This document shows positions 1,163 to 58,963 of a stretch of DNA of 64,000 bases, piece after piece. A model generated the notes under the pieces. The model saw nothing but the letters and a program-made list of their open reading frames with translations, had not been told where the DNA came from and did not search any database. The DNA is from Reclinomonas americana ATCC 50394. Its lineage: Eukaryota. The stretch spans positions 6,600 to 70,599 of the forward strand of contig PS015363.1 in NCBI GenBank assembly GCA_048213135.1, written 5' to 3'. The first letter of the stretch is position 1, and every line of letters begins with the position of its first letter. The translations under genes were made by a program, and so were the position numbers.

Positions 1163-4100
1163 TCATTTCTTCGGTTTCGGCCCCTTGCCACCCGCCGCTG
1201 CGGCGGCAGGCTCCGCACCCGGTGGTGGTGCCATGGTCTGCGAGACAATACCACGTAATTGCACCTTGAACTGGTCGAACGGTGCGGCCACGGCTGGCAC
1301 GCCGCCCTTGAAAGTGCACTGCAAACACAGACGTGAAATGTGAGCGACTGGTGGGCGAGCACAGGTGATGCAGGGCACCATTCCACGCACATCGACAGTG
1401 ACTTCACACGGCACGTCGACACCGGGAATAGGCAACTTGGCGATCGAGGCCGCAGTGGGATTGAAGCGGAAGGTAACGGTTTTGGTGGCGCCGACCTCAA
1501 GTGTGACTGTGTCCACAGAAGAACACCGAGTGAGCACGGGGGGGAAAACAACAGAGTGCTGCTACGCGAGTGACACTCTCGCAACTCTTGGCTGGATCCA
1601 CACTAAAGCCGTCGGCTGCCGCTGTCGGTGACACCTCCACCGCACACTCGCCATTGGCACCCTTGCGCTCCGTCTCGTCGCCTTGCAGTACGTTGCCGAG
1701 CAGTAGTGTCCGGGTCACCGGCATGCCGACTCCCGTCTGCTCGAAGGTGAGCATTCCTTTTTCTACATTGATTCGTGCGACATGCAGCCATCAACTCACC
1801 AGTGGGAAGTCGAGAGTGTACGTCGGCACTCGTGCTTGCCGTGGACCGCCGATATTGAGATCTTGGCCAATCTGCACCGTGAAAAAATATGGTGAGTTAC
1901 AGCCGTGAAGCACAAGCATTGTGACGGAGAACGCGCGCACCAACAGCGCTTCCTCCTCCGGGTACCGCACAAACAACGCCTGATTCCAACACCGACCGCG
2001 CACATGAATGTCACAGGCGCCACTCATGCCCGCACCCGCGTCACCTGACGGCGCACACACGCAGAATGAGAACTCTAGACCGCGACGTATGCGACTGTGC
2101 TAGTAGACAGGCACACGCACCGGCTCCTCGATCACCGCCCCATCGCACACTCAAGTGACACGCGTACTCCCTGCGCGGTCGATCCGGGGCGAAGCGAAGC
2201 GAGAGCGCCTGACGGCCCTTGGCAGGCACCACTGCACTGATCGGTGTCACTGAGAACGGCACAATGCCCGAGTCGTTCTGCAGCTTGAACTGTGCCACAG
2301 AGAGAGAGAGAGAGATAGAGAGAAAACTGTGAGCGAGAGAGTGTGCGTGTGCCACACGCCAATGTAAATCGCAGACGCGCACCTGGTCCACCTGCGCCAC
2401 GAATGGCACATCGAAGTCGGAGTCGTTGATGACTTGCAGTGTCTTGGTGACCGCCTCGTTCTCCAAAACATCGCCCACGTCAAACACTTCCGCTCCCGGT
2501 TCCACACGCACCACTGGCGACACGCCCTATTTCGATGCGTGCACAGTAAGCTGACATGAATCGCAGCGGGAGACACTCGAGACGAGGAGACGCAACTCGG
2601 CCGCGCAGCTGCATAATGACCTTGTTGGTCTCGGTGCTGTCAATAACCAGGCGGAAGGTGTAGTTTACAGGTCGCAGAGGTCGGAAACGAATCGTGATTT
2701 CGCACTGCCCGCCGGCTGGCAACTCGGACACACCGCTCAGGAACGAGAATGGCCTGCCACAAACAATAATTATTAGCAGACGCGAGAAGCACACATTCCG
2801 TTCGATGTACACACACCCGAAAGGGTCGAGAGCGGGCACCGACAGCGTGGTGGTCCGTGGACCGCGGTTGAACAGTCGGAATGTCATCGTGTTCTCCTTG
2901 CCGGCAGCAATCTGGGAGACAACCGTGTTACCACCGATGGCCACTCATGGTGGCAGGGCAAAGGGGGAAAAACGCAACGTCGCCAAACTCGAGCATCTGC
3001 GATTGTTGATTTTGTACAAGCGAAACCAGAGCTGGCTGGATGGCCGTCGTAAACACTTCGAAATGCAGCGGTGAGCCGGCGAATCCTTGAATGAACCACG
3101 GAATCATCCACGTTTCGTGCACTCCCCACTGGTCGTCCAGAGGTGCCACCGACGCACGAGCAGAACCAGACGTTGTCTCTATAAGCAGTCACGCACAGTA
3201 CGTGTCAGCGCTCGGCAGTGTCAATCAGCGAGCTGAAGTCGACTTACCACGACGAACAACCGTCTGTGCAGTGTCGTTCTTGGCGTACACCTCCGGGAGA
3301 GCGTTGAAGGACACCACGACAAACTGCTTGCCCATTGGCGGTACTGTGGCTGTCGACGGTGTCACTCGCAGCAGCGGGAGGCCACTGCAGCGACGGTGGC
3401 GTGGTGAGATTGAACATTCGATACATACACACACATCCTGCATGTAGTGCAGCGCAACTTGTCACGCTGCAGTGGACCACCCGCATTGGCCGCCGCCGAG
3501 GCCCCACCATCCGGCCGGAACACGGCGTTTGGTGGCACGGTAATGGTAAACGTGTGGCTCTGCGTCTTGGAGTTGTTCTGCATGCAGAGAGTGTAGGTGC
3601 TCTGGTCGCCAACGGCCGTCGCGCACATGTCGACTCGAGTGCAGCTCAGCTGCAACGGCGCGTCAACACCCTCGCCCGTGCAGACGATCTTGGTCTGCAC
3701 CCAGATGCGCGTTGGTCGCACACACTCACACATGATGGATGGATGAAAGGGCGCAATGCAAACCTGACGACCCTCCGCGGTGGTGCACACAATCGGCAAC
3801 TTGAAAACGGTGGCCGAATACGGCGCAAACGCCACATGGAGCACACGTGATTCGCCTGGCAGCAGAGCACCGAAACCTCGCGTGTCGCTGTCGGGCGACA
3901 CGCTGATGCCGCGCGGCAGCTGCACAAATCCAAAGCGCTGCGGCAGAGCCGAGATGTTGCGTACCATGATTGGGTGTGCCACCGTCTCGCTCGTGGTGCA
4001 AGTGCCGAAATCGATTCGAGTGGGCGTCACCTGCAAGTTGTCCTCGGTGATCTCGCCTTGCAGTCGGAAGTACAACGGCATGGCCTGGTCGGGCACGCGG

Positions 4101-7100: not shown

Positions 7101-8160
7101 CCTCCTGCAACCGCTGTTGCAGCTGCACATCGACTTGTGAGTCACACGCACACAAACAGTGAGGCGCCCCTTCCACACAGATCTGTCGCTGACCTGCTGA
7201 CGATGTTCGCGCAGCTGTCGACGCTCTTGTCGATCTTGCAAGGTGAGTTCGGGCCGAGAATGAGCCGTATCATGCAACTGGCACACGCGCGCAAACTCGG
7301 TGCGGATGGCGTTGGCGACCTTGTGTGCCTCCTCCAGCTGCACGCAAACACACGCAGAGACATTGTCAGTCTGCAGTGCACCCTCTCACCTCCACGACAG
7401 ACAGCGCGTCACGCACCGACTGCTTGATGCCCTGCGCAATGCGTTTCTTCTTCTCCAGATCCGCCAGGCACGCCGCAATGTCTGCACAGGCAGGTCGGTC
7501 AGCAGTCAACACGACAGCAAAGGTCAACGATGGACCGCCTCACGTTTCTTGGCGCGTTCCCGATGCAATCGACTGTTCCTCTCACGCGCATCGTGGAACG
7601 ACGTGAGCACTCCACTGGCCTCCAAGTGACGCGAGATAATGGTCTCCTCCACCGATGCCGTCTGGTGGTGCGCCCCACGACCATCGTCGCCATCGTCGGG
7701 CAAGTAGTCGTCCACGACACCCACATCGCCGTACTCTTCCTCCTCCTCGGCCTCAGACAACCGCGGTGCCTGTGCTGCTGGTGCCTCTGCGTGCAGAGCT
7801 TGAGCGAGAGAAGGCTGAGGCAACAAGCGCGAGAGCGAGAGACGACCGCAACTTCGCTGATGCTTTTGTGATGACTTGCGTGGCGGTGGCGGTGGTGCGG
7901 GCACTGGCGAGTGATCACCCCCGTCCATCATGCCCTCCTCACCGGGATCCGACAGCTCATCGCGATCGCCATCGTCGTACGCCGGGCTGTTGTTTACGCC
8001 AACGAAGGAGTCAGTCAGTGTGAAATCAATCATCAGTCAGCGCAGGCTTCCTTCTGTGTATCACTCGTGCAGTGCGTGCTGTGTGTGTACGTGTGAGCGT
8101 GCAAGAGTGAGGAGCACACCGTGGCAGGTTGGCAAAGTCAGCCTCGTCGTCGGAAGCCAT
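1163..8160 (-). CDS. CFAP74: Cilia- and flagella-associated protein 74 (central pair; N-terminal coiled coil plus ASH/MSP-like Ig repeats), many short introns
   Basis: Spliced motif FEPNPTKIVFTDFEVGQTYKKRVRLTNISYSFNTFKL...FFDIEYKLPGSMSAGMTCDLVVHFSPKVNAD...TGPLHIPL and repeated 'xDFGxxxxG...xLxNxG' ASH units. Start MASDDEADF at 8160, stop TGA at 1163. Confidence 0.85.
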
Positions 8161-8216: not shown

Positions 8217-11200
8217 ATGAGGTGCGTGATGCGACCCTTCTTCTCTCTCTTCCCCCCCTCCTCTCTCTCCCTCACACACAAACACTCACTGACTGTGCAC
8301 GTTGACACGACCGCAGCGACCTGGTTGGACAGGTTCGTCATGAGTGATCTTTGCATTCACTCACTCACTCTGCACTCACTTGTGACTCGGCGATCAGCTC
8401 ATGGAGATGGGCTACGATCGCGAGCGCGCAGAGATTGCCGCCTCATCATCGCGCGACATCAACGAGGCACTGAGCATGCTCAATGTTTCGTCGGAGTATT
8501 GACTATGTATGCTCCACATCATCCTTTCCTCACGTTGCCGCCAACAACAGGGCGAGACAGAGGCCCCCAAGCCACCAACCCCGCCACCACCACCACCACC
8601 ACCACCACCAGCTGCGTCAGAGAAGACTGCAGCGGCGCCTCCTGCGGTGCTTGATCGTGTGCTGGTCGACGATGACGCGGGAGAGTCGTACCACTCGGTG
8701 GCGAGCTCGGCACCGGAGGAGGTGCCAGTGGGCACGGTGAGTGTGCCGGGAGTCATGGATCACGGCGAGCATGCAGTGTCGGCGGTGAATCTGCGACGCG
8801 CGCACTTGCTGTCGCCGGCGCAGCTGCGTGAGTACGGGTTGCATGAGCAGGCGGCGGAAGTGGAGGCCAGAGCAGCAGCAGCTGCTGCTGCTGCTGGTGA
8901 CTGTGCGTGGCTCCTCCTTGTCTCTCTGATGGTGGTCAATGGTCGCTGATGTGTAGGTGTGCATCGGTGTAGCTGCTGGTACCACAATGTCGAGTGTGGC
9001 GAGTGAGGACGATGACTCGGCGCGATCGTTTGTGCCGCTGCGCGTACGTCCGCACATGCCTGTGTCGGTGGTGATTGATGAAGTGGCGAATCGGGGCCTC
9101 TGGCCGGCCGCCTCGCAGAAAGTGGTCGTCGGTCAGCTGTCGGAGAATGTTGCGTTTGTTGTCATCGGGTGTTTGTGTTATTGTGGCTCGTCCGTCACTG
9201 ACGTGCGCCGCGCAGTTTATCTTCACGGTGGAGGCGCTGTTGGCCGACTGGATGATGCTGCCGGCTTGTGCGTCTCGTGTGTCTCTTTGACGGTGTTTTT
9301 CTCTGCACGGTGAATGACGCTTATTTGCAGACGGCATCAAGCGACCTGTGTTGCTGGCGATTCGTGACTATCTGTGCGCCACGCTTGACGCAGACACACT
9401 GCGCAAGGTGCATGCTTGTTCCGCGTTGTTGCACACACAGCACGAGTTGCTCGCTTACTCACTCAAGCACACACACAGCACTCGCATCTCGCCGTGGCGG
9501 ATCCCGATGCGACGGTGGCCGCCATCACTACCCTGCTGACCTCGCAGACGACACTGCCGCCTGCCGCCCTTCTCATGGCAGCATCGGCGACGGTGGCTCA
9601 CAGTGGCGTGACAGCGGCGCTGGCCAACCAGATGCAGGGCGCGTCGCGAACCACCCCTGCGGCTCCAGCATCCGTGCCGCCTGCGGGTGCCTCGCAAGTG
9701 TCACAGGATACGGTCTCGTCGACCTCCACCACTGCGGCAGAGGCTCGCTCGGCCGCTCGTCGTGCAGAGCCCGACACGACACTGGAGGATCTCGTGCAGA
9801 TCATTGATGCGTGCTCCAGGGGGCTGGAGGTGCACTTGACAGGTGAGTGCTGGCATTCGCACATCCGCCCTATGTTACTAGTCATTGAGTCGATGCCACA
9901 CACTGCAGACAATGTGCTTGGTCGCGGGAGCTTTGGTGAAGTGGTGTTGGGATTCATCGAGACGGACCAGAATCCGGCCGGACATGTGGAGGTGGCAGTG
10001 AAGCGCATCCCGGTCGGTGGCGCGCGGTCGTCTGGTCAGCTGCGCGACGTGGCGAATGAGATCGAGTTGTTGTCGAACCTCACCGGTCATCGTAATCTCG
10101 TGCAACTGTTTGGTGCGTTTTGGGGGGAGATCTGTGCGACCACTAAAGTGTGACGCAGCCTCATCCGTGGTTCGCTCCCTGCAGATGTGCAGTATGACGA
10201 GAAGCGTTCCGAGGTCCTCTTCGTGATGGAGTTGTGCACCGGAAACTCACTCTCCGACTACATTCACGACTACTACGAGGAGCACGAGGGTGGTCAGATT
10301 CCGCTGGAGACCATTCGCGACTTTACCTCACAGCTGCTGTGGTACGCCCTTTGTCTGTTGTGGGAGTGATCAATTATGCATACATGGTGTTCTGATGAGT
10401 GTTTTGCAGGGGCCTGTTTTGCCTGCACGACAACTTTGTCATTCATCGCGATGTGCGTGTGTGTCCACTGCCAGTCGTAGGTCGTCGAGTGCTCACGTGT
10501 CTGAGTTGCTGTGCAGCTCAAACCGGCCAATGTGCTGCTCACTGAGGATGCCGACTCGGTGATTCTCAAGCTGGCAGACTTTGGGCAAAGCAAGATGATG
10601 GAGCAGACGACAGAGACGGCCACGGAGAATCGCGGCACGCCAGCGTACTGGGCACCGTTTCGTACCCGCCGTACTCCCCCCCCGATCTCACACGTCGCTC
10701 TCGTCTGACTTTATTATGCACCAGGGAGATTTGCGTCGGCAAGCAGGGCAGCAAGAGCCACCGCTACGGCTTGCGTGCCGACGTGTGGAGTCTCGGGTGT
10801 GTGGTGCTGGAGATGGCCACCGGCAGCCGTCCGTATCCCTCGTACAACAAGGCAAGTGTGCTCTGCGTGTAGAATTGGCGCAAGTTCGCTCCTGTGTTCA
10901 CGTCGTGCCTGCAGTTCCAAATCGTCACCGCTCACATGCGCGGTGAGCTGCCGGAGATTCCGGCGTCGTTGCCGGAGCAGCTGCAGTCGTTCCTGCGCGA
11001 GTGCCTGCAAGGGTGGGGTCGCACAGTGCATGCGACAATCGTTCCTCTTTGCTGACCACTCTGCAGTGATCCCAAGAAACGACCGTCGGTGGCCGAGCTC
11101 ATGACGCATCCGTTTGTGGTGGAGAGCTGGGAAGACATTGACGAGGTGCAGGATGCTGCTGACCGAGCCACCCACCTCAGACGCCGCTCCGAACCCGAGC

Positions 11201-12025
11201 CCGCTGAACCTGAGGCTGCTGCATCGCCCGTCGCAACATCGTCACTCGCGACCGACAGTGCTTCGTCTGCTGCAGCTGACGCAGAGGTGTGTATTTGTCC
11301 TCTCCGACGCGTTGCAAGTTATTGTGAACCTCATGCGCAATCGCGGGCACAGAGCTCGGTGTTGCGCACCGAGGTGCGTGTGCAAACGTCCAAGGAGCTG
11401 ACGCAGTTTATGAATCGACTGCGACTGGAGGAGACGCAGCGTCGACAAGAGTACGAAGAGGTTCCGTGAAGCTGTCTGCCTCTTCCTCTCTCTTCCCTGC
11501 TATTGACACAGCCGTGTGGCAGGCGTTCCGCAAACTCGCTGCCGAGAGGCGTGAAGTGGAGATGCAGCAGTCACGTGTTGCTGCGCAGCTGGACTTGGTC
11601 AAGCGGGAGAGAGAGCTGCTGGAGGAGGAGCGCAAACTGGCGCGCGAGGAGCACGAGCGTTGCGTTGTCTCGCGTGTGATTCGAGGAAAAATGTTCCTGA
11701 CGATGCCCTCCGTCGACAGAGTACATCGCAGACACGGAGCGTGCACGACGAGACTGGAATGCCGACGAGGAACGGCGACAGAGGCTCATTGCGTTTGAGT
11801 TGTGGAGCAAGGTACGGGTACCTGTGCTTGCGTGTATGTGCCGACGACCACACACACAATCAATGATCGCTGATGTAAAACCTCGCACAGCAAAATCAAG
11901 CCATCCGCAATGCCGCGCCCGGGCAGACCATCATGTTCCAGGGCAGCAACCATTTCGTGCCACCAAAGGGCCCCTTCAATGTGCCCTTCCCCGCGAAGCC
12001 GCAGACGCGGCCGACTCCCCGTTAG
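8217..12025 (+). CDS. Ser/Thr protein kinase (STE11/MAP3K-like) with N-terminal UBA domain, ubiquitin-like domain and C-terminal coiled coil
   Basis: Kinase motifs LGRGSFGEV, VAVK, HRNLVQLF, IHRD|LKPAN, KLADFG, RGTPAYWAP|E, ADVWSLGCVVLEMATG. N-terminus MSDLVGQLMEMGYDRERAEIA...INEALSML is UBA-like. Stop TAG at 12023-12025. Confidence 0.85.
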
Positions 12026-12206: not shown

Positions 12207-12592
12207 TCACAAGACCACACAGTCCTTGTTGCGCCGGCTTTCCTCGTCCTTCTTTTTCGAGGCCCAGTGCGTATCTGCTTGGAACGCCTGTACTGCGCGC
12301 TCCAGCTGACCGTCATTCTCGTCCAGGTAGTAACTGCGTGCAGGGTGGATTCATGATCAGCACCGACAACAACATTCAAACAAAACGAGTCACGCTTTGC
12401 GGCACGAAACTTGGCCTCCTCGCGTGTCGCATTCGTCTCCTTCATAAACTGTCTGACGAGCGCCGCACGTTGCATAGCAGCCACCACCTCTGGCGACTGC
12501 GGCGGCGGAGTCGGCACTGCCGACGCCAGTGCCGTGGGAATGAGAATCACCGGACGCTGCAGCAGCACATCGAGATTGCCGACACACGAATT
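12207..12592 (-). CDS. 3' part of Zn-finger/LysM/UBA-like/CaaX protein (end of LysM, UBA-like domain, C-terminal CVVL)
   Basis: NSCVGNLDVLLQRPVILIP...VRQFMKETNATREEAN|YYLDENDGQLERAVQAF...KDCVVL*. Continues directly from IRRA at 13607 once 12998-13607 is flipped. Confidence 0.75.
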
Positions 12593-12997
12593 NNNNNNNN
12601 NNNNNNNNNNNNNNNNNNNNNNNNNNNNNNNNNNNNNNNNNNNNNNNNNNNNNNNNNNNNNNNNNNNNNNNNNNNNNNNNNNNNNNNNNNNNNNNNNNNN
12701 NNNNNNNNNNNNNNNNNNNNNNNNNNNNNNNNNNNNNNNNNNNNNNNNNNNNNNNNNNNNNNNNNNNNNNNNNNNNNNNNNNNNNNNNNNNNNNNNNNNN
12801 NNNNNNNNNNNNNNNNNNNNNNNNNNNNNNNNNNNNNNNNNNNNNNNNNNNNNNNNNNNNNNNNNNNNNNNNNNNNNNNNNNNNNNNNNNNNNNNNNNNN
12901 NNNNNNNNNNNNNNNNNNNNNNNNNNNNNNNNNNNNNNNNNNNNNNNNNNNNNNNNNNNNNNNNNNNNNNNNNNNNNNNNNNNNNNNNNNNNNNNNN

Positions 12998-13607: not shown

Positions 13608-13710
13608 NNNNNNNNNNNNNNNNNNNNNNNNNNNNNNNNNNNNNNNNNNNNNNNNNNNNNNNNNNNNNNNNNNNNNNNNNNNCACTCACACTCTGTGGCA
13701 CAGACGAAAC

Positions 13711-18976: not shown

Positions 18977-19203
<227 letters not shown>

Positions 19204-31100: not shown

Positions 31101-31175
31101 GCGGAAACGGAAGACCAACGCAACTGCACACTTGGCCTCGTACACACTGGCCGCAGAGGTCGCCGCCGACGCCAT
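25198..31175 (-). CDS. RNI-like leucine-rich repeat protein with long C-terminal coiled coil (possible SAM-like end); 3' end uncertain
   Basis: Repeats such as LSELSLIDNKIGDAGAIALA, ITSLNLANNNLTDEGLGHLC and LSHNPLGDTGV splice continuously into heptad-rich ELMERLRASQE...EQENDVQQLLQDLEEVK. ATG at 31175. Confidence 0.7.
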
Positions 31176-38836: not shown

Positions 38837-39621
38837 TTAGTACACTGTGAATTTCATACACCTCGTCTCGTCGTGCGTCCCCTTGCATTTGACGCAGCAG
38901 AAGCGCTGGCCGCACCGCAGGCACTTGTAATCACCGTGTTGTCTGCCAAGCGCATGTCAGCACTCGACGAACATTCCCCCTGCCCTCCCTCCGAGACACT
39001 CACCCGCAGATGGAGCACAGCAAGTGCGGCAGGCGCTGCGAGGGGCCAGCCTGAATGGAAAAGTAGTTGGGTGGATCTTTGGGGTGCTTCTCCCGCAGCT
39101 CTTGCGGATTGGGCGGATCCTTCAACGTCAGTCCATACTGCATGCAGTGACCAGCCATCCTCAGCAACAAGCCACCTATACACACGCAACACACAGAAGC
39201 ACACACGCAACATCCTTCCAGAACACGCGATCCAGCGTTCGCACCGGCAGCTGTCCGTGTGCCGATTGCCCGCGTTCTGCACCACAAAAAAAGCGTGAGC
39301 ACCATGCACCTCGCCAAACCAATGCACTTGAACAACGCAACTGCCGCCAGCCGACTGACCACGCGAGGAGCCCGCCGCACCTCCTGCACCCCCTGCAGCA
39401 CTCTTCTTCTTTGGTCGCTTGCGCGTGGGTTGATACATTTCACCTGCGCGGTGTCGACGACCAAGTGAGCACACACGCACACGCGCGCGGTGAGAGGAGA
39501 CCAACTCAACTATCCGAGTCCACATAGTCCGAGTCACCATCGCCACCCAGCGCCATGCTGCCAATCCTCCCAAAGTCGTCCACATTCTGTCGACCTGTGT
39601 GTGTCACATGCAAGACGTGAG

Positions 39622-40385: not shown

Positions 40386-40425
40386 AACATGGTAACCATA
40401 CTCTATGCACTCTCTCGATCGCCCG

Positions 40426-43400
40426 TCAACAATAGTACGACGGAGCAATCATCAGCTCGGTGAGAATATCTAGCTCTTCCTCCGTGAACTTGTTCTTGTG
40501 CTCCGCACTCCATCCGTTCTGGTGACTCGTCTGTGCAGGTGCTAGTCAGGGAGCAGCACGACACGCGTAGATAAAAACAAAACACGAACCCAGAACGACG
40601 AGAGCACGGTGCGCACGGCGGCCGACACCGGGAACGGGTCGTTGATGTGTTTCGCCACCTCCACCAACGCCATGCGCGCACTCGGCTGCACGTCATGCGG
40701 GTAGCCACGGACAATGGCGCCAAGTCCGAGGACGCCGCTGTGTCGGCGCAGCGTCAAGCCGCGAGCTGCGTGCATTCACCCGAGTGAGGAAAGAGGGGAG
40801 AAAAGCACGCCGACGATGGTGCATCACGCACTGTCCGGGTGATCCAGGTCAAACTTGCGACCCTTCTTCGGCATGGGCGTGCGCACCCACTCGAGGAATG
40901 TGTCAATCAGTGGCTGCAGCTTATCCTCCGCCTCCAGCAATGGTACGTAGCCCGAGAGCGCCACGGAAGCCAGATCACGGACCTGCAGTCTTTGTGTGGG
41001 GTTGTGTGCGTGGCTTTCTTCAATGCACGCAGTCATACCTCCATCATCGAATCACCGAGGGCACTCACGAGGACCTCGAAGAAGCCGTTCCATGTGACAT
41101 CTGTGTGCAGCGGTGGTAAGTGAGCGGCAGCTACATGAGGACAGCATGAGTGACAGAAAACCGACCGTCGAGCAGGAAGCGATTCTTGAACACCAGCGAC
41201 CTGCGCATGCAGCAGCGGCTCGCACAGTGAGTGCACGCCATGAATCACTCGCCTCCGTCGCTTCACCACGCAACTGCAGCATCACAAGAACGCCCATGCG
41301 ATTCTGCCACGTGGTTCCCTCCTGGTCTCGCAACACCGTGTACAGGTAGTCAAAGAACTCGGAGGTGATATTGTCGGCCGCTGCGCAGCACCGAGAGTGT
41401 CGGTGCACAGAACATAGCAAAAAAAGACGCAGCATCACCACCCACAACGCAACTGTGCTTGCGCCCGTAGACCAAATCCGGATTCGGCGGGTTGCGTGGG
41501 CCAAAGAAGATGGGATGTGCCATGTTGACCAAAGTCATGTTGGCAATTCCGCGTACATCCTGCCACGCACGCCCCAGTGTTGTTGAGTCAACACAGCATC
41601 ACAGACGCGAACGCAACAACAAAGTAACGCGCAACATCATCCGGTGCATTCTGCGCGCGCAGCACGACCGGCAGCAGCGGAATAACATACTGGTAGAACA
41701 TGCGCCAGCGTGCAACATTCGTGCACTTGTAAATAAAGGTGACGGCCGTCTCGTAGACTGCGGGAGATGGTATACGTAGCGCGCAAAGATGAGAGACTGA
41801 GTTATCCATCTCTGCATTCTACACCTCCGCCGACTCACCACCGACGAGACACAGAGCATCGTCCGGGTTGCACTACAATGGGCGAGGGGTGGTCACTCAT
41901 GTGCAATCTTCCATGCGATATGCACGTCAGCAACACTCACCTCGAATGTGGGGAACGGATTGCCAGAAAAGAACGCCGGCGACAACAGATCGACACTCGG
42001 TGTGCTCGGCGTCTCTGGCATGTAGCCCACGGTGACACCCTGGTGGCCGCGCGCAGAGAACGTGAGAGCGGGCATGGCAGGTGGATTTGTCTGCTGACTC
42101 GACAGCCGCTGTCCTGCCACTGTTACCACACCGCCCGACACGGGCTGCGCCGGCATCGGCTCCTCAAAGTTCGGCATGGTCACACTGTGCGTCATGCCGG
42201 TGAGGTCGGGTGCGGCCGGAGTTGCTGGCTGCGGATGTGCCAGCTCCAGGGTGGTGGTGGGATCAAAGGCGATCATGGCCGCCGCTGTACTCGCATCCAT
42301 CTCGTCCCCGACATACTCGCCGGCGTGCACGATCGAATTCTCCAGTCGCGCAATGTCCTCGGCCACCTGGTTCAGATCGATCATCAGCAGCTCCTGGCAC
42401 CACGTCTTGACGAAATTCATCAAACTGCAGTTGCCAGAGTGAGCACCGCGGCAGGCAGGCAGGCAGGAACAGTAACGCAATATGATTTCCGCACCGACTG
42501 TTGACTTCGTTGCCCGAGTTGGCATACGAGGCACGGTGCGTGTCCTTGGTGATGGCCGGACGCCACAGATTGTTGAAAATCTACAGTGGAGAGATGAGTG
42601 AGGACAATTGTTCAGTCCACGCAATGCACGCAGCGCTACACCCACCTGGAACAGCAGCGTGGAGATCTCGTAGCGCACAGCCTTGACTGGGTGGCTCAGA
42701 TAGTGCTGCATGACCTCCAGCAGGCGATAATTCATCTCCGGCAGCGTCCACATTGTCTCCACAGCAATCGGCTGCAGGTACTGCAGCTGGCGCAGGATGA
42801 TTGACGAGGGTGTGTTGAGGCTGTCGAGCGTCACTTGAGAAAAGCAGAGCTCTGCGGTGGACGATATGAGATGCGCAATCACAAACCACAACCACGACAA
42901 TAAAGATACACAGACCGATGAACGGCCGACACCGACGCGGGTCGCGATCGGAGGCGCAAAAGACGGCAAACGAGTACCAGTAGCCGGTGCATTGCAACGA
43001 CGACATGTACATGCACACTTGCAGGAGCGGGAGCAGTTCCTCCCACTGTGTGTACGGCACACACAATTCAGCATCTCGAGCGTGGCAGAGAAAACTGAAG
43101 AGCACTCGACCAAAGACGCAACGAGCTGCTGTTGCTGAGCAAAGGGCCAGTTCTTCGAGCCGCGAACGAAACCGGCGCATAGAGTGGCGCACAAGAACAT
43201 GGCCGGCAGCTCCTCGTGGCCCGTCTGACCAGCCATGCTGGTGCACTTGTCGAGAGTGGGCTTCACCATGTTCCAGAAGCGCACTCCGAGCAACCGCGCA
43301 ATGTCCTTGACGTTGCGCACGGCAGCACCGGCCAGCCAGACGTTCTGCAAACAAGGGACGAAAAGCAGTGTAAGCACACGCAGCTGCGATACACACACAC

Positions 43401-46400
43401 ACAAACACGACGAATGTAGGGCGACAAAACATCGGGCGTGGCTTCGCTCTTCAGCTGCCGCATGATGCCCTCGAGAAGCGTCTCAGTTGGACCCGTGTCG
43501 CCCGGCGACTCCACACCAGCTGCACACCCGCAAAAGTGAGCACACCCCAAGAACGACACGAAGAATTCAACAGCACAAACTGAAGTACCGGCGGCGCCGG
43601 CCGCAGCCGTGGAGGAGCTGCTGCGAGTGGCACGTCGTGGCTGCTGCAACAGTTGTGCAATCATCTCTGCCAGACTCTCGGCATGGCGGGTCTGTTCGCG
43701 CGCCTCGGGAGTCGCAGTCCGTGCATGCTCCACCGTCTCCGGCGCATAGTTGTAGACGGTAAACTCCACCGGATCGGCATAGAATCCAAGAACTGCATGC
43801 ATGTGAGGACTGCGCACACAAGTCGGCGATAACTCGCACGCCCAGACAACGCAACCCTTGTCATAAAAGTTGCACTTGAGCCACTGCTCTTCGTTCTCAG
43901 GCTGGTCGGCGTAGATGGCGACCTGTCGGTGGAAAGCGGGGCGATCGGAGGGCGGACTGCCAACAACAACAACAGCCGCAGATTAGTGCATACAGAAAGA
44001 GCCCATCATCCCACGCTGCACCCACGCCATCAGCACGCAACGGCCGAATGTTGAGCTTGGGTGACGGCACTTTGAATTGCACCAGGGCCCGAGTCAAGGC
44101 CGACGCGCTGCACCGCACAGAGATGATGAGTGCGCACACCGAGGTGAACCACTCCACCGACCCCCACTCAACGCCATCGATCGCACGCCGGCCACATCCG
44201 ACGCCAGCTGCTTCAACAGGAACATCACCATGCGCGGCGGCGGCGGCTCCTCGTTGCGAATCTGGCTGCAGATGAGACCCGTGATGAGCGACTGGAACTT
44301 CCAGTGTCGCACCGGGAGACTGCATCGATGCCGGCGACTGATGAGTACCAGCATATCAACCATCGCGGACACTCGTACGCAACTTGGAGGTGAGCAGAGT
44401 CGTGTCCAGATCGGCCACAGCGTCGGCGGCAGTTCCAACAGCCTGCACGCCACTCTCGCCGCACATGTCGCCGGCGTCGACAATGTTGAGCAGGAAATGG
44501 ATCTGTGCGCATGTGCACATGTCAACACTCACTCGAACAAAACTCCTTGACACTTGACCGTGCATTGCAAACTCACAAATCCATTCCACCTGGCCAGAGC
44601 GAGTTCACCTGCGCACGCAGACACAGTTCATGAGCACACCGAGAAGGAAGAAACTTGTGTAACGCCGGGAGACGCAACGATTCTCGGGCGTAATGGCAAC
44701 ACCACCATGGAAGTGGGTGCGTGCAATGGTGATGAGCGGCAATTCCCATGTGGCCAGCAGCTCGTTGGAGATCAAGTTCAGCATCTCTTGCAGGGACACC
44801 TGCGACAAGCCAGGCGCAGCAGTCAGTGATCGGCACCAAAGAGTTTTCGGGCGAAACACCCGCGCGCACACCTTCTCCAGGTGGGTTGTGGTCAGCATGG
44901 TCAGGCAGAGAGATGTGAATAGCTTCCAACTGCCGAGGATCTTGGGCAGCACTGCGATACTCAGTGAGACGGCCGCAATAAAACATGATGTCGAAATATG
45001 GAGCAGCGAACCTTGGAAGCTGCCCAGCACCCACGCAGCGCCCTTGATCTCGTGTGCCTTGGCATCTGCACAGGAGAGGGTTGGTTTCGAGACGACAGGC
45101 GTCACACGCAAGCAGGCAGTTCTCTCACCGAGTTTCGTCAGCGAACGGAAGATGGTGGGTATCACACGACGGCAAATCTCTGCAGGGAACGCCTGCCAGA
45201 ACAGCTCCAAAGCACCTTGTGCCGCTCTACGCAATACAACATCACAGTCAACGTGTGTCGCCGTAGGAATGCATGACGAGGACGCAACTGTCGAACGTCG
45301 ACAAATTCGTGGAGCGATAGCGACAGCATAATGTGGATGAGGTCAAAGTACGGACGAGTGATCACCAGCGCATTGCTCGACTGCTCCAACAATCTGGTCG
45401 CGTGACGGTCGACTGCATGCAGGGCTGTGTCGAGAGAGAGGAAGGAATGAACAGGCATGCACACGTCGCAATCAAATAGCAGCAGCAAACGAACCCAGGT
45501 GGTGGCGCAAGTATCGGCCGTCCGGCTCGAACACGTCGTACACGTCGCTCTTGAGCAGACTCCAGTATGAACGCAAGGCGTTGGTGGCCGCAGCGCTGCC
45601 GCCTCGTGGTGCCATGAGAGCGATGGTCAGCTGCTCAACGCCATGCGATCAGCCAAGAGACCATAGATCATGCGCATGGTTATCTCGCGAACCTTGCAGA
45701 CATTCTTCCAGAACTTGGGCACATCGACCAGTGGCTGGCCAAGCTTGACGTACATCTTCTCGATGAGACGCACGATGCGCACGCGCACCGTCAGCAGCTC
45801 GCCTGCGTAAAAGGCAAGTGTGAGACGGGAAACTGGGCAGAACGGGGGCGATAGCGTGGACGCAACGGTACGCCTCAGAGTCGTCGGGAGCATACGCCGT
45901 TCCATCGTCAACCGGAAGCGTAATAAGCGGCACCTCAATGATCGTGGAGTCGACGCTGTAGGAATCCAATGTGAGTCGGAGCGATACTGCGCACACGGTG
46001 GTGAACAGCGGCACCTCAAGTCATCCGTCGGGATCTCGGGAATGGCAAGCGAAGCGCCAATGATCACCGTCTGCAGCATGGCAATGGCGTCGAGAGCCAC
46101 ACTCACGTCCATGCGAGTCGATCCTCTGCACACACAGAGAGCTCAGCAGAAAACACAGCCTTGACGAGCATCATCATCAACCACGAAACTCGACCGGGGG
46201 TGCTCCATCCGCACTCCACTCGGCAATAAACTGCTCCAGCGTAGCAAAGCACTCCTTGATGTGCGTCCACGCCAGCTCACGCACGCGCGACACTTGCGCG
46301 GCTTTCTGCACCGGTACAAGCGGTGAGATGACAACACTGTTGAGTGATACCGTCGATTTGCAGGGAAGTGACAAACCGGCTTGTCCCACTGGAACTCGGC

Positions 46401-49400
46401 CGTCTCGGCCGTGTATGTGCGAGCCCAGTACTTCCAGCTGGCCTCCTGGAACTCTTGCGATTCCCACTCGGTCGGCGACACGCAGCGAGCCTCGCTCAAC
46501 GCCGTGCCCAGCAATTGGTCAAAGAGCTGTTCAGCGTGCAGTGAGCGTACCAGGAAAGACGCGAACACGACCATGCAGGACGCCTTGCCTTGCCAACAAT
46601 CTCGGACCCAGCGCGACGGCACTTGCGCAGTTTGCTCGTCATTGCCGCACCGGCGATTTCCATCAGTGTCGGACTGAGTGGTCATACAAGTGAGAAGCGC
46701 AACACGGCGGTTGGGCGAACATGAAAGTCGTGGTAACGCAACAGCTGCTCCTCCACAATGCACAACTCGGCTCCGTCAATGGCTTCCGCAAGGAAACCGA
46801 GATTCCACAACAGCTCGCTCTCGGTCAGCGATCGCAGTTTCATACCTATCACGAAGACACACGTGAGCGACGAATCCTCTCCCACAACAACAGCAGCAGC
46901 AGCAGCAGGAATGAGATTTGCAGACCCTGCGCCGTCTTCTCCAGCAACAGTCCGTGGATGTGTCGCACAAAGTGCTCCAAGCTGTTCGTGGCCCGGACCA
47001 CCATGCCAGCCTGTCACACAGGTCAGCGACAGAATGGCTGTGCACAAACAACTATTCGAGCACACGCACCGTAGCCACGCCCATGTCCTCCAATGCCGAC
47101 GAGAGACCGTCGTACACACATCGCTTCAGTCGACTGCGCATGTCTGGCGAGGTCTGGTGCACCAACAGGCTCAGCGTGAACAGCAACTCCATCGACAGGC
47201 CAGCGTCGTGTTTGTTTTGAGGGATGATGGTGCGGACCTGCGACATCCCACGTTGACAACAGCAGCATTACAGCAATTCGCAAGGCGCAGCAGGACGCAA
47301 CGAATGAGAGGCATCGCTGCAGAGTCAAGAACAACCACGAATCCCAGTTTGCGCCAATCGACGCCAACGCCTCACTGTGCGCAACACCCGGTCAGCAACA
47401 CATCATCACTGTGTGTCGACGAGCTGAGACAGTACCGATCCGCTTCGGGGAGAGCAAGGAAATCCGCGCGCTGTGTGTTGTACGGAAGGGCGGCTACGCA
47501 CGACAATACGCCTGTTGTGCACACAATGTCGCCAGTGAGACACTGGCGTGCGCGACCGATAGTGGAAAATAAACACACGACGAAACTCGAAACCACACTG
47601 CATGCCAACACCGAGTTGGTGTTGTTTCCGGGGTCAATGGCCAGCGGCAGGTGCGGAAGGATTTGCAGCAGACGGCTGGGAGCACCGGGACCTGTCAGCA
47701 GGGCGCGGAACGAGTATTTCCACGCCAGGAGCGCCGACGTTGACCGGTGAATCTCGTGCACGGCATCAAAGGCGCCACTGATGGCCTCGGTGAACCGCGG
47801 CAACGTGTAGGTCGGGGAGATGACTGGCAACGTATTGCAGTGAGCAATCGTTCGACCACAGCAGCAAGCGTGAAACGAGGGGACGCAACAAGAAAGGTAC
47901 TTGATGCCCAGCACCGCAATGCCCTGCAGCGCGGGATTCTCCGCATACATGGCCTTGAGCAACATCGGCAGCACCAGCGACGAGAAACGCTGCGCGTGTT
48001 CGGGCTTAAGCATCCATTCGTCGCTGTAACGATGCTCGCGGTTCAGCTCTGCGGGGGCGCGGGGATGAGTGAGACTTGAGGAGAAAAGTCTATTCTCAAT
48101 GCATTTGAGTCGGCCGACCTTGCGAGAGACGCCGGGAAAAGTTGAAGCAGAGACCGTCGAGGAAGGAGCCGAGCACCGATACATCGGCCTGCTGCGACGG
48201 ATGGTAGAAGCTGCGCGACGGTATGAACAGAGAGAGAGAGAGAGCGCGCGCGTGTGCTGGGAGGATACATGCATGTCAACCCCGCAACATCTCAATGGAC
48301 TCGATGAGGCGTCCGAGGTAATTGAACGCCATATCCGACGTCGGGCTGAGCATGTACACCAGCAGGCCGGCGCAGGCACGAGCCGAATTCGCCGTGTTGT
48401 ACGCCGGGAACAGACTCTGCTCAATCTCGCTGTTCATCGACGGCATTGTGGAGTTGGCCATTGCACCGACAGTCAAGTCTGTGGCACGATTCAGAAGTGC
48501 AGTTCAGCGACACCTGCACGCAAGCGACGACGTACCAAGGGTGTCGAGGAGCTTGCTGTAGATGAGATCGATAAACTTGGACCAATCAATCCGGTCTGCC
48601 AGGCGCACGGCGGTGTTGAGCAGGTAGAAGAACATGGCACTGTCGAACATAAAGTCGGTGCCTGCGAGTCGGAGTGCATGAGTACAAACTCCCGCCAGGC
48701 CCCCGCAGTGAAACACCAATCATCACTGCGCACCGCGCCACGTCCACAGCTCCATCAGCTCGTCGAGCACCTCGTCAATGTTGCTCGGGCACGGAGTGAG
48801 GAAGATCATCATCACTTGGTACCACAGCTTGCTGATATCGGTGGGATACGAGATGCGAGCACGGCACATGTCCATGACCTCGGCGGCGCTGGAGGGCGGG
48901 AAGTAGTGGCGCGCCGTCAGGGCCAGCGTCACCAGATCGTCAACCAAGTGCTTGGTTCCCGGAGTGAGCAGCAGCAACAGCAGCAGTCAAGGAGAGCACA
49001 GGATCAAAAAAAACAAGCAAGCGAAGAGGAGCGGAAGACATCAAGGATATGCATTGACCCGGTGCATGAGCTGCTGGGAGCGGAAGAGCAGCTTGCGAAG
49101 TTTCTCAAAGAGCGGTCGCCACTCCAGCTGGAAATCATCCGGCAGCCACAATGGCTTCCTGCGCACACACACACACACACACACACACAGATCAGCATCA
49201 GCATCGCACACACGTACACGAAAGAAGAAGGCGGGAGAGGCAGCCACGCACTTGAGCAGCGCAATGACGGCATTGATAAAGAAGCCTTGCATACGCTCAT
49301 CCATCTGCGGTGCGAACGTGGCGCGCCACATGAAGCGCGTCAGCTCCGCATGATCGGGCTTGCTGAGCTTGTACTTGAATGTGCGCATCGATCTGCATGC

Positions 49401-50015: not shown

Positions 50016-51151
50016 ATGAGCGACAAGAAGGTCCTCAAGCTTCTGTTGCTCTGTTGTCGACAGTGTGCTGATGTGGTGTGCGCTTGCGCAGAGTGTTGGA
50101 TGCCGTCGGTGCTGGTACGATGTGTGGTTTGTCATCTGGTTCGCAGTGTACCCCGTGACTGTGCTCATCAGGTGCGTGCTTGTATGCGGGTATGAGTGTG
50201 AGGCGTAGGCGTGTAGTGAGTGAGTGAAAGAGTGAGAGAGTGAGTGAGTGAGATTTGAGGAAGAATTGTGCATGATTTCGCGCGCGCGTTGTGTTCATGA
50301 GTGCATATGTCGAGCTCTCATTGTCTTTCTGTGCCACACATGCGCATATGCTGCCGACAGTGACTACTTCAACTTCCAAGGCGCCATGCACCGTTGCGTC
50401 TGCGTCTGTGCGTGTTTGGCGCCATGCGCAATTTGGTTCACTCACACGCGCACACACACCGCGCCCCCTCCACAGAGGTTGACGTGCACGAGCTCGGCAG
50501 CTACGAGATGTGGCCGTGGAACCCGCCGAAGCAGCTGCTGCAGCTGTACCTGCAGTGGTGCGATGCCGCCGATCCGCTTCTGTGCGCCAACCCGCCCTAC
50601 TTCCAGACCATGGAGGCCATCAACATCCTCTTCCTGCTGTGGTTTTCTGTCGTGCAGCTCTTTGGCTTCATTGGCGGTGCGTGTGTGTGCGTGTTAACAA
50701 CACACAAGCGCACCCCCACATGTGATTGATTGGTGGTGATACAGGCTGGAACTCGATCCGCAAGCTCGGCCTTGTGTGGGCCGCCTGCTGCTTCTACTCG
50801 GTGGTCGTCTGCTGCGGCGAGGTGTGTGTAATACGCGCGATAGGTCGATTCCTCGACGTTACCGAATTGTGTTGTCTGCAGACCTTCCTCGGTGCGTCGT
50901 CGTCGCGCTCGCCGCACCCGCAGTGGTACCTCGCCATGTACATCCCGTACGCGGTGTTCCCGGTTCTGCTGTTCTGGCGTCTGTGGAGCGAGAAGCCGTT
51001 CTCGGCCTCGGGACTGCCGTCGACGTTTGGTGCCCTCATCATGTCGCTGACTGGCATGGCCACGCTCGCGCAGTTCGGCTTTTTCATGTACCAGTTCATC
51101 GCCAAGCACGGTGTCATTGTGTTCCCGGAGCTGGCGCAGTACATCTTCTGA
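50016..51151 (+). CDS. EXPERA-domain membrane protein (TMEM97/TM6SF/EBP-like)
   Basis: WYDVWFVIWFAVYPVTVLIS|DY...WCDAADPLLCANPPYFQTMEAIN...WNSIRKLGLVWA...YIPYAVFPVLLFWR. Confidence 0.75.
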
Positions 51152-51266: not shown

Positions 51267-53303
51267 ATGGGAACGTGTGCGTGCAAGGGCTCCGCGGTGA
51301 TGGAGCGGGGCATTCACACACAGCAGATTGTTGCGCCCGCACACCAGGAAAGATCGCCAGTTCTATCTCATGTTCTCACACGCGCACGCAGCTCACTGCC
51401 AGAGTGACAACAAACGGGCATGTGGCAGAGGTTGGCGACAACGACCTGGGCTCCGAGGCCTCACTGTCGCACATTGAGGTTTGCACGCCCATCATGACAC
51501 ACGCGAGACGAAATCGCTCATCCTTCTTTCGTCCAGGTCGAAGAGGTTCCCGAGGCCATGTGGATCTCACTCATGTCGTTCATGGACTTGAACGATGTTA
51601 CGCGACTGTGGCGTGTCTCTCGCGACTTTTGTCGATGGCTCGAACGGTGGGTGATTGTAGGGTCCTCGCGTCGCTCTTCTGTGCATCTCATCGCCACAGC
51701 ACAGGCATGCGACGATCGAGGTTGGACGGGAGCAGCTGGCCAAGGCCTCCTCCTTGCCCACTGAGGCCCTCATCGGTGGCATGTTTGCGTCGTTTGGTGG
51801 ACTTTGCGCGTTGCATTTGGACGGAGGTGGGACACATGCTGCTGCTGCTGCTGCACGTGCATGCATTTACTTGTGCATTTCGTCGGGGTGCAGTCGCGCT
51901 TGGGCCACGGGAGACACGGGAGATCGCCGAAGGCATCCGATCCAACTCTGGCTCGCTGCGCACGCTCACGCTGACTCGCAACAGCATTGGTGAGGACGAT
52001 TTGCGCTTGTTGGCCAAGCCGTTGCAGGAGAACCGATCCATCGTCACGCTGCGGTTCAACAGTTGCGCCCCGCCCAACCACCCGCATTGTCTGTCTGTTT
52101 GTCTGACTGACTGTGCACACAGCCAACACGGTGGGCGAACGAGGTGCCGATATGTTTGCGGCGGTGTTGCGCAGCAATGATGCGTTGCGGACGCTGACCA
52201 TTGGATGTGCGTCTCTCTCACCATACCGTCTCGCTCCAGTGACGTGCCTCTCCTCACCAAACCTTCTTGTCACCTGCGTAGTTGCTGGGATTGGTGACAC
52301 GGGCGCCGAGCAGCTGGCGGCCGCGCTGCATGTGAATCAGTCGCTCACGGTGTTGGAGCTGCACGGTGAGGAGACGCTGTCTCACTCTCTCTCGCTCTCT
52401 ATCCCTTGTCAGCAACGTGGAACTGAAGCGCAGGATTGCTGCAGGTAACAAGCTGGAAGACGCCGGTGCGACTGCGCTGGCTCGCATCGTGGCCACACAC
52501 GAGTCGCTGCGTGCACTGAAGCTGTCGGGTGAGTCGCCCGGTGATTTCATGCACGTGCATGCTCGACGATTGCCGACCACTGCATGCAGGCAATATGCTA
52601 GAGGAGGCCAGTGGGCAAGCACTTGCGGATGCTCTTTCCGCCAATCGTGTGCTGGAGAAACTCGATGTGGGAGGTGAGAGAAGGAGGGCAGCAAGGATGC
52701 AGAGTCGGGCACATTCCCACCGCCCCCCATGTGCGCACAGTCAATGACTTTGGCGATGTGGCGGTCGGTTTCTTTGCCGATGCACTACGGTGCGACAACA
52801 ACACGCTGCGCAGCCTGAGTCTGAACAAGAGCCGCATTGCCGAAAAGGGGGCGCGACAGCTGGCCGAGATGCTGCGGAGGAACAAGTCGCTGACGTTCCT
52901 CGATGTGTCGGGTGCGTGTCACGGTGGCGACGGTCTATGTGCACCGCTATGAATTGCTCACCGCCGTCTTTTCTGTGTACAGAGAACCAGTTCGGCCTGG
53001 AGGGTGTGCGCGACTTTGCGGCGGCCGTGGCAGAGAGCATCACACTCAAGGTGCTGGTGTTCAACGGTGCGGCGCAGTGCTATCCTCCGTTACCGTCAAC
53101 TTTGCAATCATTCGACTTATGCTGTATGCGTGCAGGAATGAAGTGTCGTGAGGAGGGGGCGGAGCTTGTCGGCGACATGCTGTGTATCAACGAATCGCTG
53201 GACAGTGTGGAACTGTGCCAGAACGAGTTTGGCGAGCGCGGCATGGTGCACATTGCGCGCGGTGTCACCGAGAACGACACACTCGTCTCCTTGTCGCTGT
53301 CAT
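51267..53303 (+). CDS. F-box plus RNI-like LRR protein, 5' part
   Basis: F-box-like VPEAMWISLMSFMDLNDVTRLWRVSRDF; LRRs LRTLTLTRNSIGEDD, LRSLSLNKSRIAEKGARQLAEML, VELCQNEFGERG. Probable MGTCAC start. Confidence 0.7.
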
Positions 53304-57849: not shown

Positions 57850-57855
57850 GCGCAT

Positions 57856-58235
57856 TCAGAGGACGCTCAGTTTGCTCAGTCGTCCAGCTGTCTCGGCGGC
57901 CGCCGCCATGAGCGACTCGCGACCCGGATTGCCGATGCGACACACTGGCGCAGACGAGTAAGCGAGATGACACGGACCGCCTCACAACCCGAGCACGAAA
58001 CGTGAGAGATCGAGTTGCGTAAGAGCGGCGTTCTTCGCCACCGCCGCCGCAATAAACGTAGCGCCGTCGTCTCTCAGCGGATTGCCTGTGGTTTGCATGT
58101 CAGCAGCACGCCGTGAATCAAACAATGCAGGCGTGCAGCAGGGTACGCGACAGCTGAGATCGAGCTGGAGAAGAGTGTCGTTCTCCTCCAAGGCGGCGGC
58201 CAGCAATCTCGCAGACTCGGCGTTGAATTCGTTGT
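57856..58235 (-). CDS. F-box/LRR protein, 3' exons (inside the inverted segment)
   Basis: NEFNAESARLLAAALEENDTLLQLDLS|NPLRDDGATFIAAAVAKNAALTQLDLS|LCRIGNPGRESL...SVL*. Joins the intron interrupted at 53352. Confidence 0.75.
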
Positions 58236-58470: not shown

Positions 58471-58963
58471 CTCGCTGCCGAGTTCTGCCAGCAGCCTCTG
58501 CGCCTCTCTGTAAAAGCGAATGGATGAATGAGTGAGTTGAGCGTGCGTGGTACGAGGAACGCAACCGCGCATCACTCAACTGCTTCTTTTCGCGAATGGC
58601 CTCAATGGTGCTGTGCAGGGCACGGATCGACGAGGCGTTCTCGTCGGCGTAGGTCTGCCGCTGCAGTACCGTCGTCTTCTCCTCGACTTCGTGCTCACGC
58701 GCATCCACTCGTCTTCTCATCTCTGTGTGCGTGAGCGGGGGCACGCAGTGAGAGGGGGTGGAGGGGAGGGGAGGGAAATGAGGAAGAGGGGAGCACCCAC
58801 CGTCCACCACATTGTCGACATCGGCGGCCTGGCGGTCGAGGTGCCGGCGCACTTCATCACGCAAGTGCTGGATGTTCTGCGCGGTGCGCACATCTTCGGG
58901 GCCCTCATCGGCCAACAGATCGCGAAAGTCGTCAAGACCAGCAGCCAGATCCAGGTCGTCCAT
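58471..58963 (-). CDS. SPC24: Spc24 N-terminal coiled-coil half
   Basis: MDDLDLAAGLDDFRDLLADEGPEDVRTAQNIQHLRDEV...REAQRLLAELGSE joins in frame to QAQLD at 53590. Confidence 0.65.

Follow-up and report, generated by a model that had tools for sequence, protein, structure and literature searches.

Genes of the window

We report here on a candidate class of 5' splice sites (donors) with the sequence GTTGCG(T) in a 64-kb stretch of eukaryotic nuclear DNA from Reclinomonas americana ATCC 50394 (contig PS015363.1), which was analysed over its full length and is called the window below. As judged from the DNA, this class appears to supply about 13-17% of the donors here, or about one intron in six. 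An initial annotation of the same DNA had already drawn attention to at least 17 donors of the form GTT(G/T)CGT and had regarded them as a major class.

The window has a GC content of about 58% and contains 12 runs of N, which total 3821 bases and interrupt some of the genes (for example at 12593-12997, 13608-13682 and 35219-35828). Genes were located by Pfam matches to open frames. CFAP74 lies on the minus strand (about 1-8000) and the protein kinase gene on the plus strand (about 8900-12000). Further along are a TALE (KN) homeobox frame at 17247-18521 on the minus strand (87.6 bits), a gene for a Utp12 protein on the plus strand starting at 23734, an RNI-type LRR protein gene at 25354-31178 on the minus strand, TPGS1 on the plus strand near 32000, a lipid desaturase gene on the plus strand (about 37000-38900) and PSME4/PA200 on the minus strand (about 40400-49800). 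A short-chain dehydrogenase gene is also present, and a MADS-box gene is indicated by a weak SRF-type MADS match at 59244-60206 on the plus strand (26.6 bits). The flagellar genes in the window are CFAP74, TPGS1 and that for a TPH-domain protein, a set that suits a flagellate eukaryote.

Gene models and intron landscape

Because the high GC content leaves long frames open everywhere, which makes a listing of open reading frames useless, a gene finder was written for this DNA. Using dynamic programming, it scores codons against background together with an acceptor matrix, an intron-length prior and intron 3-mers from position +9 on; at the donor it requires GT only, and it was trained on itself. 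Introns were called confident when the gene score was at least 40, the length 45-110 bases and the end YAG.

In total, 227 introns were predicted, and 191 of them were confident. They are uniform in length (mostly 55-80 bases) and almost always end in GCAG or ACAG. Each kb of coding sequence carries about 6.3 of them, an extreme density, and PSME4 (modelled at 40332-49826, minus strand) has about 48. Two words are enriched within 45 bases of the 3' ends of the 191 model introns, CTCAC (72 observed, 15.6 expected) and CTGAC (35 observed, 6.2 expected), and they are probably the branch-site motif.

The GTTGCG(T) class within the models

Although nothing beyond GT was asked of the donor, GTTGCGT accounts for 25 of the 191 confident donors, which ties it with GTGCGT (25), and no heptamer is commoner. 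With any seventh base, GTTGCG makes up 33 of the 191 (17%). When low-scoring models are included, there are 27 GTTGCGT, 8 GTTGCG[ACG] and 2 GTTTCGT donors, so the initial list of 17 was an under-count; the description as a major class agrees with these numbers. An earlier crude model, which was noisy and had no acceptor or length terms, still gave GTTGCG as the commonest donor hexamer (11 of 118).

The use of the motif as a donor is very high. Among the 31 sense-strand copies of GTTGCGT in gene space, 25 serve as donors (81%), the top usage of any heptamer, compared with 5.5% over all 3475 GT sites. The 43 copies in the window comprise 25 confident donors, 2 low-confidence donors, 4 copies in sense exon, 2 internal to introns, 4 antisense copies and 6 outside the models. 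The 13 copies of GTTTCGT comprise 2 confident donors, 2 copies in sense exon, 3 antisense copies and 6 outside the models, with none as a low-confidence donor or internal to an intron. The weight of the class in the models was also seen when donor hexamers were forbidden one at a time: the score loss was 145.8 nats for GTTGCG, the largest of those tested, followed by GTGCGT (92.6), GTGTGT (50.7), GTGCGC (25.6) and GTGAGT (22.7), while the control hexamers GTTGCT, GTGGCG, GTCGCG and GTTGGT cost 0-5.2 nats.

Independently of any gene model, only the G form is clearly over-represented. On both strands, GTTGCGT has 43 copies against 14.72±3.67 in dinucleotide-preserving shuffles (n=100), none of which reaches 43, whereas GTTTCGT is hardly enriched (13 copies against 6.85±2.46, with 1 of 100 shuffles reaching 13). 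Since GTTTCGT also gives just 2 model donors, the class is essentially GTTGCG(T); of the two forms proposed initially, the T form is a minor member with weak support. GTTGCGT ranks 79th among all 7-mers of the window, the commonest of which are (CA)n/(GT)n and (GA)n/(CT)n runs with up to 229 copies. For comparison, the window holds 127 copies of GTGCGT and 4 of the textbook donor GTAAGT on both strands; one GTAAGT copy is the model donor at 16534, and another was read by eye as a donor near 3247 in CFAP74. Across the 42 N-free copies of GTTGCGT, again with no gene model used, the share of T increases across the motif from 0.21 to 0.30, that of A decreases from 0.21 to 0.15, and codon periodicity drops from 0.36 to 0.19. 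This composition step is sharper than that at GGTGCGT, and none is seen at control motifs.

Within the donor, the positions depend on each other. Among the 191 introns, T at +3 is coupled to G at +6 with T at +7 (fourfold counts 29, 32, 7 and 123; odds ratio 15.9, p=2.4e-11) and anti-coupled to G at +5 with T at +6, and the dependence proposed in the initial annotation is thereby found in the model introns of the window. The 29 donors with +3T and +6G/+7T are GTTGCGT (25), GTTTCGT (2), GTTGAGT (1) and GTTCCGT (1). The class seems to demand the best core, displaced forms of other ordinary cores being almost absent.

Apart from their donors, the class introns look like the others. Their median length is 69 bases, compared with 67 in ordinary introns, and acceptors (GCAG/ACAG) and composition are alike. 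All members are GT...AG; GT and AG are requirements of the model, whereas its acceptor matrix derives from the full set of introns. The phases are represented 11/12/10 times, and retention would lead to a stop or a frameshift for 27 of the 33. The motif CT[GA]A[CT] is matched in only 6 of the 33. Of the 21 gene models, 11 contain introns of the class, and its distribution over them shows no significant heterogeneity (p=0.49). When the 191 intron interiors were compared all against all by blastn-short, only simple-repeat matches were found, and 14 of the 643 hits were between class members; because the interiors share no similarity beyond simple repeats, the class introns are not introners. U12-type introns, which have an RTATCCTT-type donor and a strict branch site, were considered as well, and the heptamer GTTGCGT does not fit that donor.

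Some copies and sites need separate mention. The GT at +6 was rejected as the donor of the class; a first-pass model had slipped to it at three class sites (29381, 44673 and 46737). The GTTGCGT copy at 43172 is not a donor and lies inside a conserved PSME4 exon. Four sense copies were scored as exonic with a model donor 5-27 bases downstream, namely 14265 and 37176 on the plus strand and 46742 and 44041 on the minus strand, and these may be further class donors misplaced by the model. The last of them is a probable PSME4 intron donor (43957..44041) by sequence reading, for which the model kept the acceptor and placed the donor at an in-frame GT 27 bases farther downstream.

Homology tests of the cuts

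The position of the cut was examined using profiles of 8 CFAP74 homologs and 15 full-length PSME4 homologs. For each junction, all in-frame GT/GC..AG alternatives were scored against the profile, and a site was taken as informative at 10 bits or more. At 9 of 10 informative sites, the best-scoring cut is the one at the GT of GTTGCG, and the class makes up 8 of about 25 homology-pinned junctions in the two genes.

All nine sites are on the minus strand. In CFAP74 they are the donors of the introns at 2912..2978 (GTTGCGT; 27.5 against 24.2 bits, rank 1 of 10, also given by the donor-agnostic model), 2527..2596 (GTTGCGT; 92.5 against 87.5 bits, rank 1 of 11) and 1507..1585 (GTTGCGA; 17.3 against 12.5 bits, rank 1 of 16). 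In PSME4 they belong to the introns at 48211..48288 (GTTGCGG; 45.8 against 40.4 bits, rank 1 of 3) and, with GTTGCGT, at 47824..47889 (57.8 against 51.6 bits, rank 1 of 8), 45227..45288 (25.6 against 18.8 bits, rank 1 of 16), 43046..43122 (65.1 against 58.5 bits), 41201..41274 (14.9 against 8.3 bits, rank 1 of 16) and 44320..44383, where the lead is just 0.3 bits (21.1 against 20.8, rank 1 of 12) and retention would give a stop. At 43122, the junction QQQQL/WEELL (the slash marks the splice point) reproduces ...EKLWELL of human PA200. At eight of the nine sites, the runner-up is an in-frame GC three bases downstream, 3-7 bits behind. As the three phases are about equally used, GTT is unlikely to be an invariant part of the exons, and the reading with GT is preferable.

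An alternative in which both ends are cut one base later was also scored. Homology cannot separate it from GT..AG at 9 of 11 sites; at 2978 the later cut is 2.1 bits better, and at 43122 GT..AG is better by 5.2 bits (W rather than G at a conserved Trp).

Outside these two genes, the GTTTCGT intron of the kinase gene (10657..10724, plus strand) is supported by the activation loop, as the initial annotation had noted from the kinase APE motif: splicing rebuilds GTPAYWA/PE and joins Pkinase profile positions 124-165/167 to 170-202.

Homology also pins some donors that lack G at +5 or have odd cores (48118, 42915 and 5452, all on the minus strand); they include GTCGGCC (44.8 against 35.2 bits), GTATACA (131.2 against 118.6 bits) and GTCTGTG. 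Some of the introns seem to ask little of their donor apart from GT.

Displacement of the donor signal

Ordinary donors in the models read AG/GTGCGT(GT), with G at -1 in 78%, A at -2 in 43%, G at +3 in 66% and C at +4 in 47%. The class donors read A/GTTGCGT. G stands at -1 in 2 of the 33, compared with 79 of 101 ordinary donors (p=6e-14), which is also below the 32% G of exons (binomial p=0.0004), while A at -1 reaches 42% and mirrors the 43% of A at -2 in ordinary donors. The coupling to a loss of G at -1, which had been proposed from the listed sites, thus extends to the model introns. When the exon flank of the class is scored with the ordinary matrix, the result is -34.5 nats for the unmoved matrix and +6.1 nats for a shift of one base. 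The intron side behaves likewise, with +7 of the class matching +6 of ordinary donors. The class is the ordinary eight-base signal with T replacing the first intron G and the cut one base earlier.

Pairing with U1 small nuclear RNA (snRNA) was evaluated by nearest-neighbour energies, using the 5' end of U1 given in PMC4856993 and not the organism's own U1. For GTTGCGT, the energy is -1.4 kcal/mol in the shifted register, +0.9 kcal/mol in the canonical register and +2.5 kcal/mol with a bulged U. A hypothetical single change at position 8 of U1 would improve the duplex from -1.4 to -5.7 kcal/mol. Standard U1 alone may be insufficient for the class. Because the exon side is displaced, U1 in a shifted register or a variant U1 is favoured over a bulged U. 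By computation, the class exists, its usage is very high, and both its intron and exon sides are displaced by one base.

Introns of the class and further candidates

The 17 heptamers named in the initial annotation were all present on the strand given, as GTTGCGT at 2978, 28074, 29386, 30157, 33656, 39211, 43855, 47889 and 58565 (minus strand) and at 11659 and 50393 (plus strand), in total 11, and as GTTTCGT at 8485 and 10657 (plus strand) and at 12410, 13710, 35899 and 58001 (minus strand), in total 6. At 15 of them G is missing at -1, the exceptions being 43855 and 58565. As donors, 12 of the 17 were recovered by the donor-agnostic model, namely the 11 GTTGCGT sites and 10657, and the other five GTTTCGT sites were not. 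Unless stated otherwise, the introns described in this section have a GTTGCGT donor and were predicted by the donor-agnostic model.

In CFAP74, an intron at 3385..3458 (GTTGCGC, minus strand) was found by the model and by sequence reading, and an intron at 7787..7852 (GTTGCGG, minus strand) by the model only. The kinase gene contains introns at 9149..9215 and 11659..11719 (plus strand), and retention of either would shift the frame. On the minus strand, retention of the intron at 25580..25646 would bring an in-frame stop. The LRR gene (minus strand) has introns at 28006..28074, where a 492-codon open frame stops 2 codons past the site; at 29329..29386, with a frameshift upon retention; at 30082..30157, where the LRR repeat runs across the junction and retention gives a stop; at 30301..30379 (GTTGCGA); at 30910..30984; and at 31059..31124, with a stop upon retention. 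A membrane-protein gene has one at 33591..33656 (minus strand). In the lipid desaturase gene (plus strand), an intron at 37679..37752 starts with GTTGCGA, and one at 37826..37897 is followed by an exon that matches Lipid_desat from position 26, the 24-residue exon before it plus the split codon making up positions 1-25. Two introns at 39138..39211 and 39277..39341 (minus strand) come from a model with a low gene score of 36.

The remaining PSME4 introns (minus strand) are those at 41381..41453, 41560..41635 (GTTGCGC), 43793..43855, 44609..44678, 45803..45866 (given by both model versions) and 47238..47301 (profile score 5.4 bits, rank 2), and a GTTTCGT intron at 46126..46189, whose profile rank is 4 of 10 with a low score. 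Further along lie an intron in an EXPERA-like membrane-protein gene at 50393..50475 (plus strand; frameshift upon retention), one at 52062..52122 (GTTGCGC, plus strand), one at 58508..58565 (minus strand; frameshift upon retention) and one in the TPH-domain gene at 62456..62537 (minus strand), which was given by both model versions and would bring a stop upon retention.

The five GTTTCGT sites that the model did not recover differ in their support. At 12410, an intron at 12334..12410 (minus strand) in a UBA-like (UBA_4) gene is indicated by the UBA_4 profile, positions 21-36 of which match from residue 2 of the next exon, and the model chose 12386. At 58001, a possible LRR-gene intron at 57945..58001 (minus strand) comes from reading only: LDLS/L/CRIGNPGRESL continues an RNI-type repeat, has no Pfam match and lies outside the predicted genes. 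The site at 8485 (8485..8550, plus strand) is ambiguous, as the UBA profile (7-37 of 37) ends there and a stop follows 5 codons on, perhaps the end of the gene. The last two run into N gaps. An EI24-like exon ends at 35899 (weak, E=0.018), and the 66-base candidate intron at 35834..35899 (minus strand) abuts a gap; at 13704..13710 (minus strand), a gap begins 28 bases downstream.

The nearest protein relatives found for CFAP74 are only about 34% identical, the matches in the ESM Atlas are CFAP74-like clusters only, and a metagenome scan for close relatives of a long CFAP74 exon gave 156 pattern matches, none of which was confirmed. The nearest relatives of the PSME4 C-terminus are the fragments P0011-P0013 (62-65% identical). 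Compared with 40590-40751 (minus strand), P0013, which looks genomic, runs into non-coding sequence after ...NDPSPIP, and since this read-through falls inside a single exon of the window, intron positions differ between the relatives. P0011, the same sequence in a spliced-looking form, confirms the junction ...SSFW/TSH at 40589 of the window.

Discussion

Taken together, the data lead us to lean, with confidence only slightly beyond even, towards the view that GTTGCG(T) would mark a real and frequent class of 5' splice sites in ordinary short GT-AG introns, with a recognition footprint that has moved by one base relative to the cut. The proposed mechanism has two steps. First, the 5' end of U1 would pair with the donor in a register shifted by one nucleotide, in which G+1 would take the place of G-1, A-1 that of A-2, and UGCGU at +3 to +7 that of +2 to +6. 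Second, U6 and U5 would take over, and the cut would be set at the sole available GU. We infer that U1 with a standard 5' end is the reader of the class and that U6 tolerates the extra nucleotide. A broader proposal, for which we see even chances, is that the organism routinely uncouples U1 binding from the cut, about one sixth of its introns being one nucleotide out of register, with either slipped standard U1 or a second, dedicated U1.

Several points weigh against the shifted-footprint reading. Every count comes from one 64-kb window, and donor status was throughout computed from DNA sequence, so that all junctions are predictions. The models are imperfect: at 40 CFAP74 and PSME4 junctions with an informative profile, the model junction came first among in-frame alternatives at 28. 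At 43855, the PSME4 profile favours the GC three bases downstream (23.5 against 16.1 bits), which may reflect either alignment noise or a tandem donor at 43852-43855 (minus strand) with both cuts in use. At seven more GTTGCG sites (47301, 45866, 44678, 41635, 41453, 7852 and 3458) the profiles were uninformative. Positions +8 and +9 of the class do not follow the preference of ordinary donors for G and T at +7 and +8. The shifted duplex is also very weak, with -1.4 kcal/mol compared with -9.7 kcal/mol for the ordinary consensus. Finally, a search of the window with Rfam at gathering thresholds gave no match, so no snRNA gene lies there.

An unlikely alternative is a dedicated variant U1 from a second gene, in which the base opposite +2 (position 8), or more, is changed so that it fully pairs with GUUGCGU. 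To our knowledge, few RNA segments of eukaryotes are as conserved as the 5' end of U1, which counts against such a variant, and the window contains no snRNA gene that could encode it. On the other hand, a variant would likewise displace the exon flank by one base, the computed duplex gains from a change at position 8 as given above, and the near-invariance of the heptamer (25 GTTGCGT among the 29 donors with +3T and +6G/+7T) fits a strict reader. Expressed variant U1 genes of humans are also described in the literature, as far as the excerpts used here extend.

Quite unlikely is the bulged pairing suggested by the initial annotation, in which standard U1 would pair with G+1 and U+2, one U at +2/+3 would bulge and GCGU would pair like +3 to +6. 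This register is known in humans, as the excerpted text of PMC4856993 reports, and it explains the intron side equally well, +7 of the class corresponding to +6 of ordinary donors. However, a bulge keeps G-1 paired, so that G at -1 should stay favoured, and it was instead seen in 2 of 33 class donors against 79 of 101. The exon footprint moves too, with the flank at -34.5 nats under the unmoved matrix, and the bulge is the least stable of the three registers.

A very improbable explanation is that the class is the relic of a burst of intron gain, its shared donor and non-G base at -1 being inherited from an introner-like element family and its target site. The near-identical heptamer in many genes and the uniform lengths of 55-80 bases would suit such an origin, and the event could be an old one whose interiors have decayed. 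The origin from one element family, also raised initially, is nevertheless without support here: the 33 interiors match each other by simple repeats only; length, acceptor, composition and phase are as in other introns; and the spread over genes is even.

Doubtful in the extreme is a true donor at the GC three bases downstream (GTT/GCGT...), which would give GC-AG introns or alternating tandem donors. This GC wins at 43855 by 7.4 bits and is the usual runner-up elsewhere, but GT wins at 9 of the 10 informative sites, the invariant GTT would be an unexplained exon constraint in three frames, and GCGT(C/T) resembles an ordinary donor in its first base only. It is least credible of all, to the point of being nearly dismissible, that the class is a composition or codon-bias effect of the models or a non-canonical cut one base later (an intron starting with U), because, although the genome is GC3-rich and seldom uses the codon GTT, which may lead a codon-based model to end exons ahead of it, and although homology seldom separates the later cut and prefers it at 2978, control hexamers with the same start are cheap to forbid (GTTGCT 5.2 nats, GTTGGT 0.8 nats) and show no exon-to-intron composition change, antisense copies number 4 against 31 in sense, GT..AG is clearly better at 43122, and with the later cut the conserved GCAG would no longer stand at the very end of the intron but one base before it.

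The shifted-footprint reading matters for the following reasons. The usual teaching is that U1 recognizes donors in a single fixed register, and shifted or bulged pairing is documented only as a rare exception in mammals. If the reading is true, the spliceosome is able to operate routinely in a second register, and hundreds to thousands of natural test cases would be available to study how the cut is positioned once U1 has left. The organism would thus offer a natural genome-scale system for the register rules of 5' splice sites and for the tolerance of U6 and U5 to an extra nucleotide after GU. In practice, a gene finder with a single donor matrix would misplace about one sixth of the exon ends in this organism.

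Comparison with known systems

Copies of introner-like elements share sequence along the intron. The class resembles them in that many introns carry the same splice signal and are uniform in length, and it differs in having no common interior sequence. Closer to the present case are the shifted-register 5' splice sites of mammals, which were reportedly treated by Roca and Krainer in 2009. According to the excerpted text of PMC4856993, pairing in a shifted register with cleavage later fixed by U6 has been described. In humans, as given there, the validated non-canonical U1 registers together account for 3119 of 201,541 donors (1.5%), and the bulge +2/+3 register for 68 predicted sites, or 54 after curation, of the 201,541 donors (Fig. 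1C and Table 3 of PMC4856993).

Compared with the bulge +2/+3 donors (GUU-type) as presented in that excerpt, the class shares U at +2 and +3 followed by the normal +3 to +6 one base late, but here G-1 is lost, A-1 is gained and the energies speak against a bulge. The tandem donors of STAT3, which are three bases apart, are also comparable, since GT and GC stand three bases apart here and non-canonical registers of U1 and U6 are invoked in the parts of PMC11162779 used; unlike in STAT3, the second site is GC instead of GU, and among the 10 informative sites there is only one where the profile favours it. Among the literature matches listed for the motif words, as judged by title and the start of the abstract, none uses them in a splicing context. 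The literature found on non-canonical U1 registers consists of human, tunicate and general work, and leaving supplements aside, no such class is described in it; the tunicate paper, in the part seen, merely mentions a shifted register as a possibility.

With the mammalian shifted-register donors, as characterized in the excerpts of PMC4856993, the class shares several features. First, the introns are GU-AG, G at +5 is missing and pairing with U1 is restored by a move of one position. Second, the cut stays at GU, with +6G and +7U acting as +5 and +6. The core differs, being UGCGU in the predicted donors here and not the AAGU-type of the mammalian sites in that account. The main difference lies in frequency: by the same partial account, such sites are a handful in humans, whereas here the heptamer makes up 25 and the hexamer 33 of the 191 model donors. 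With one displaced heptamer matching the consensus in frequency, the donors of the window represent a quantitatively new regime.

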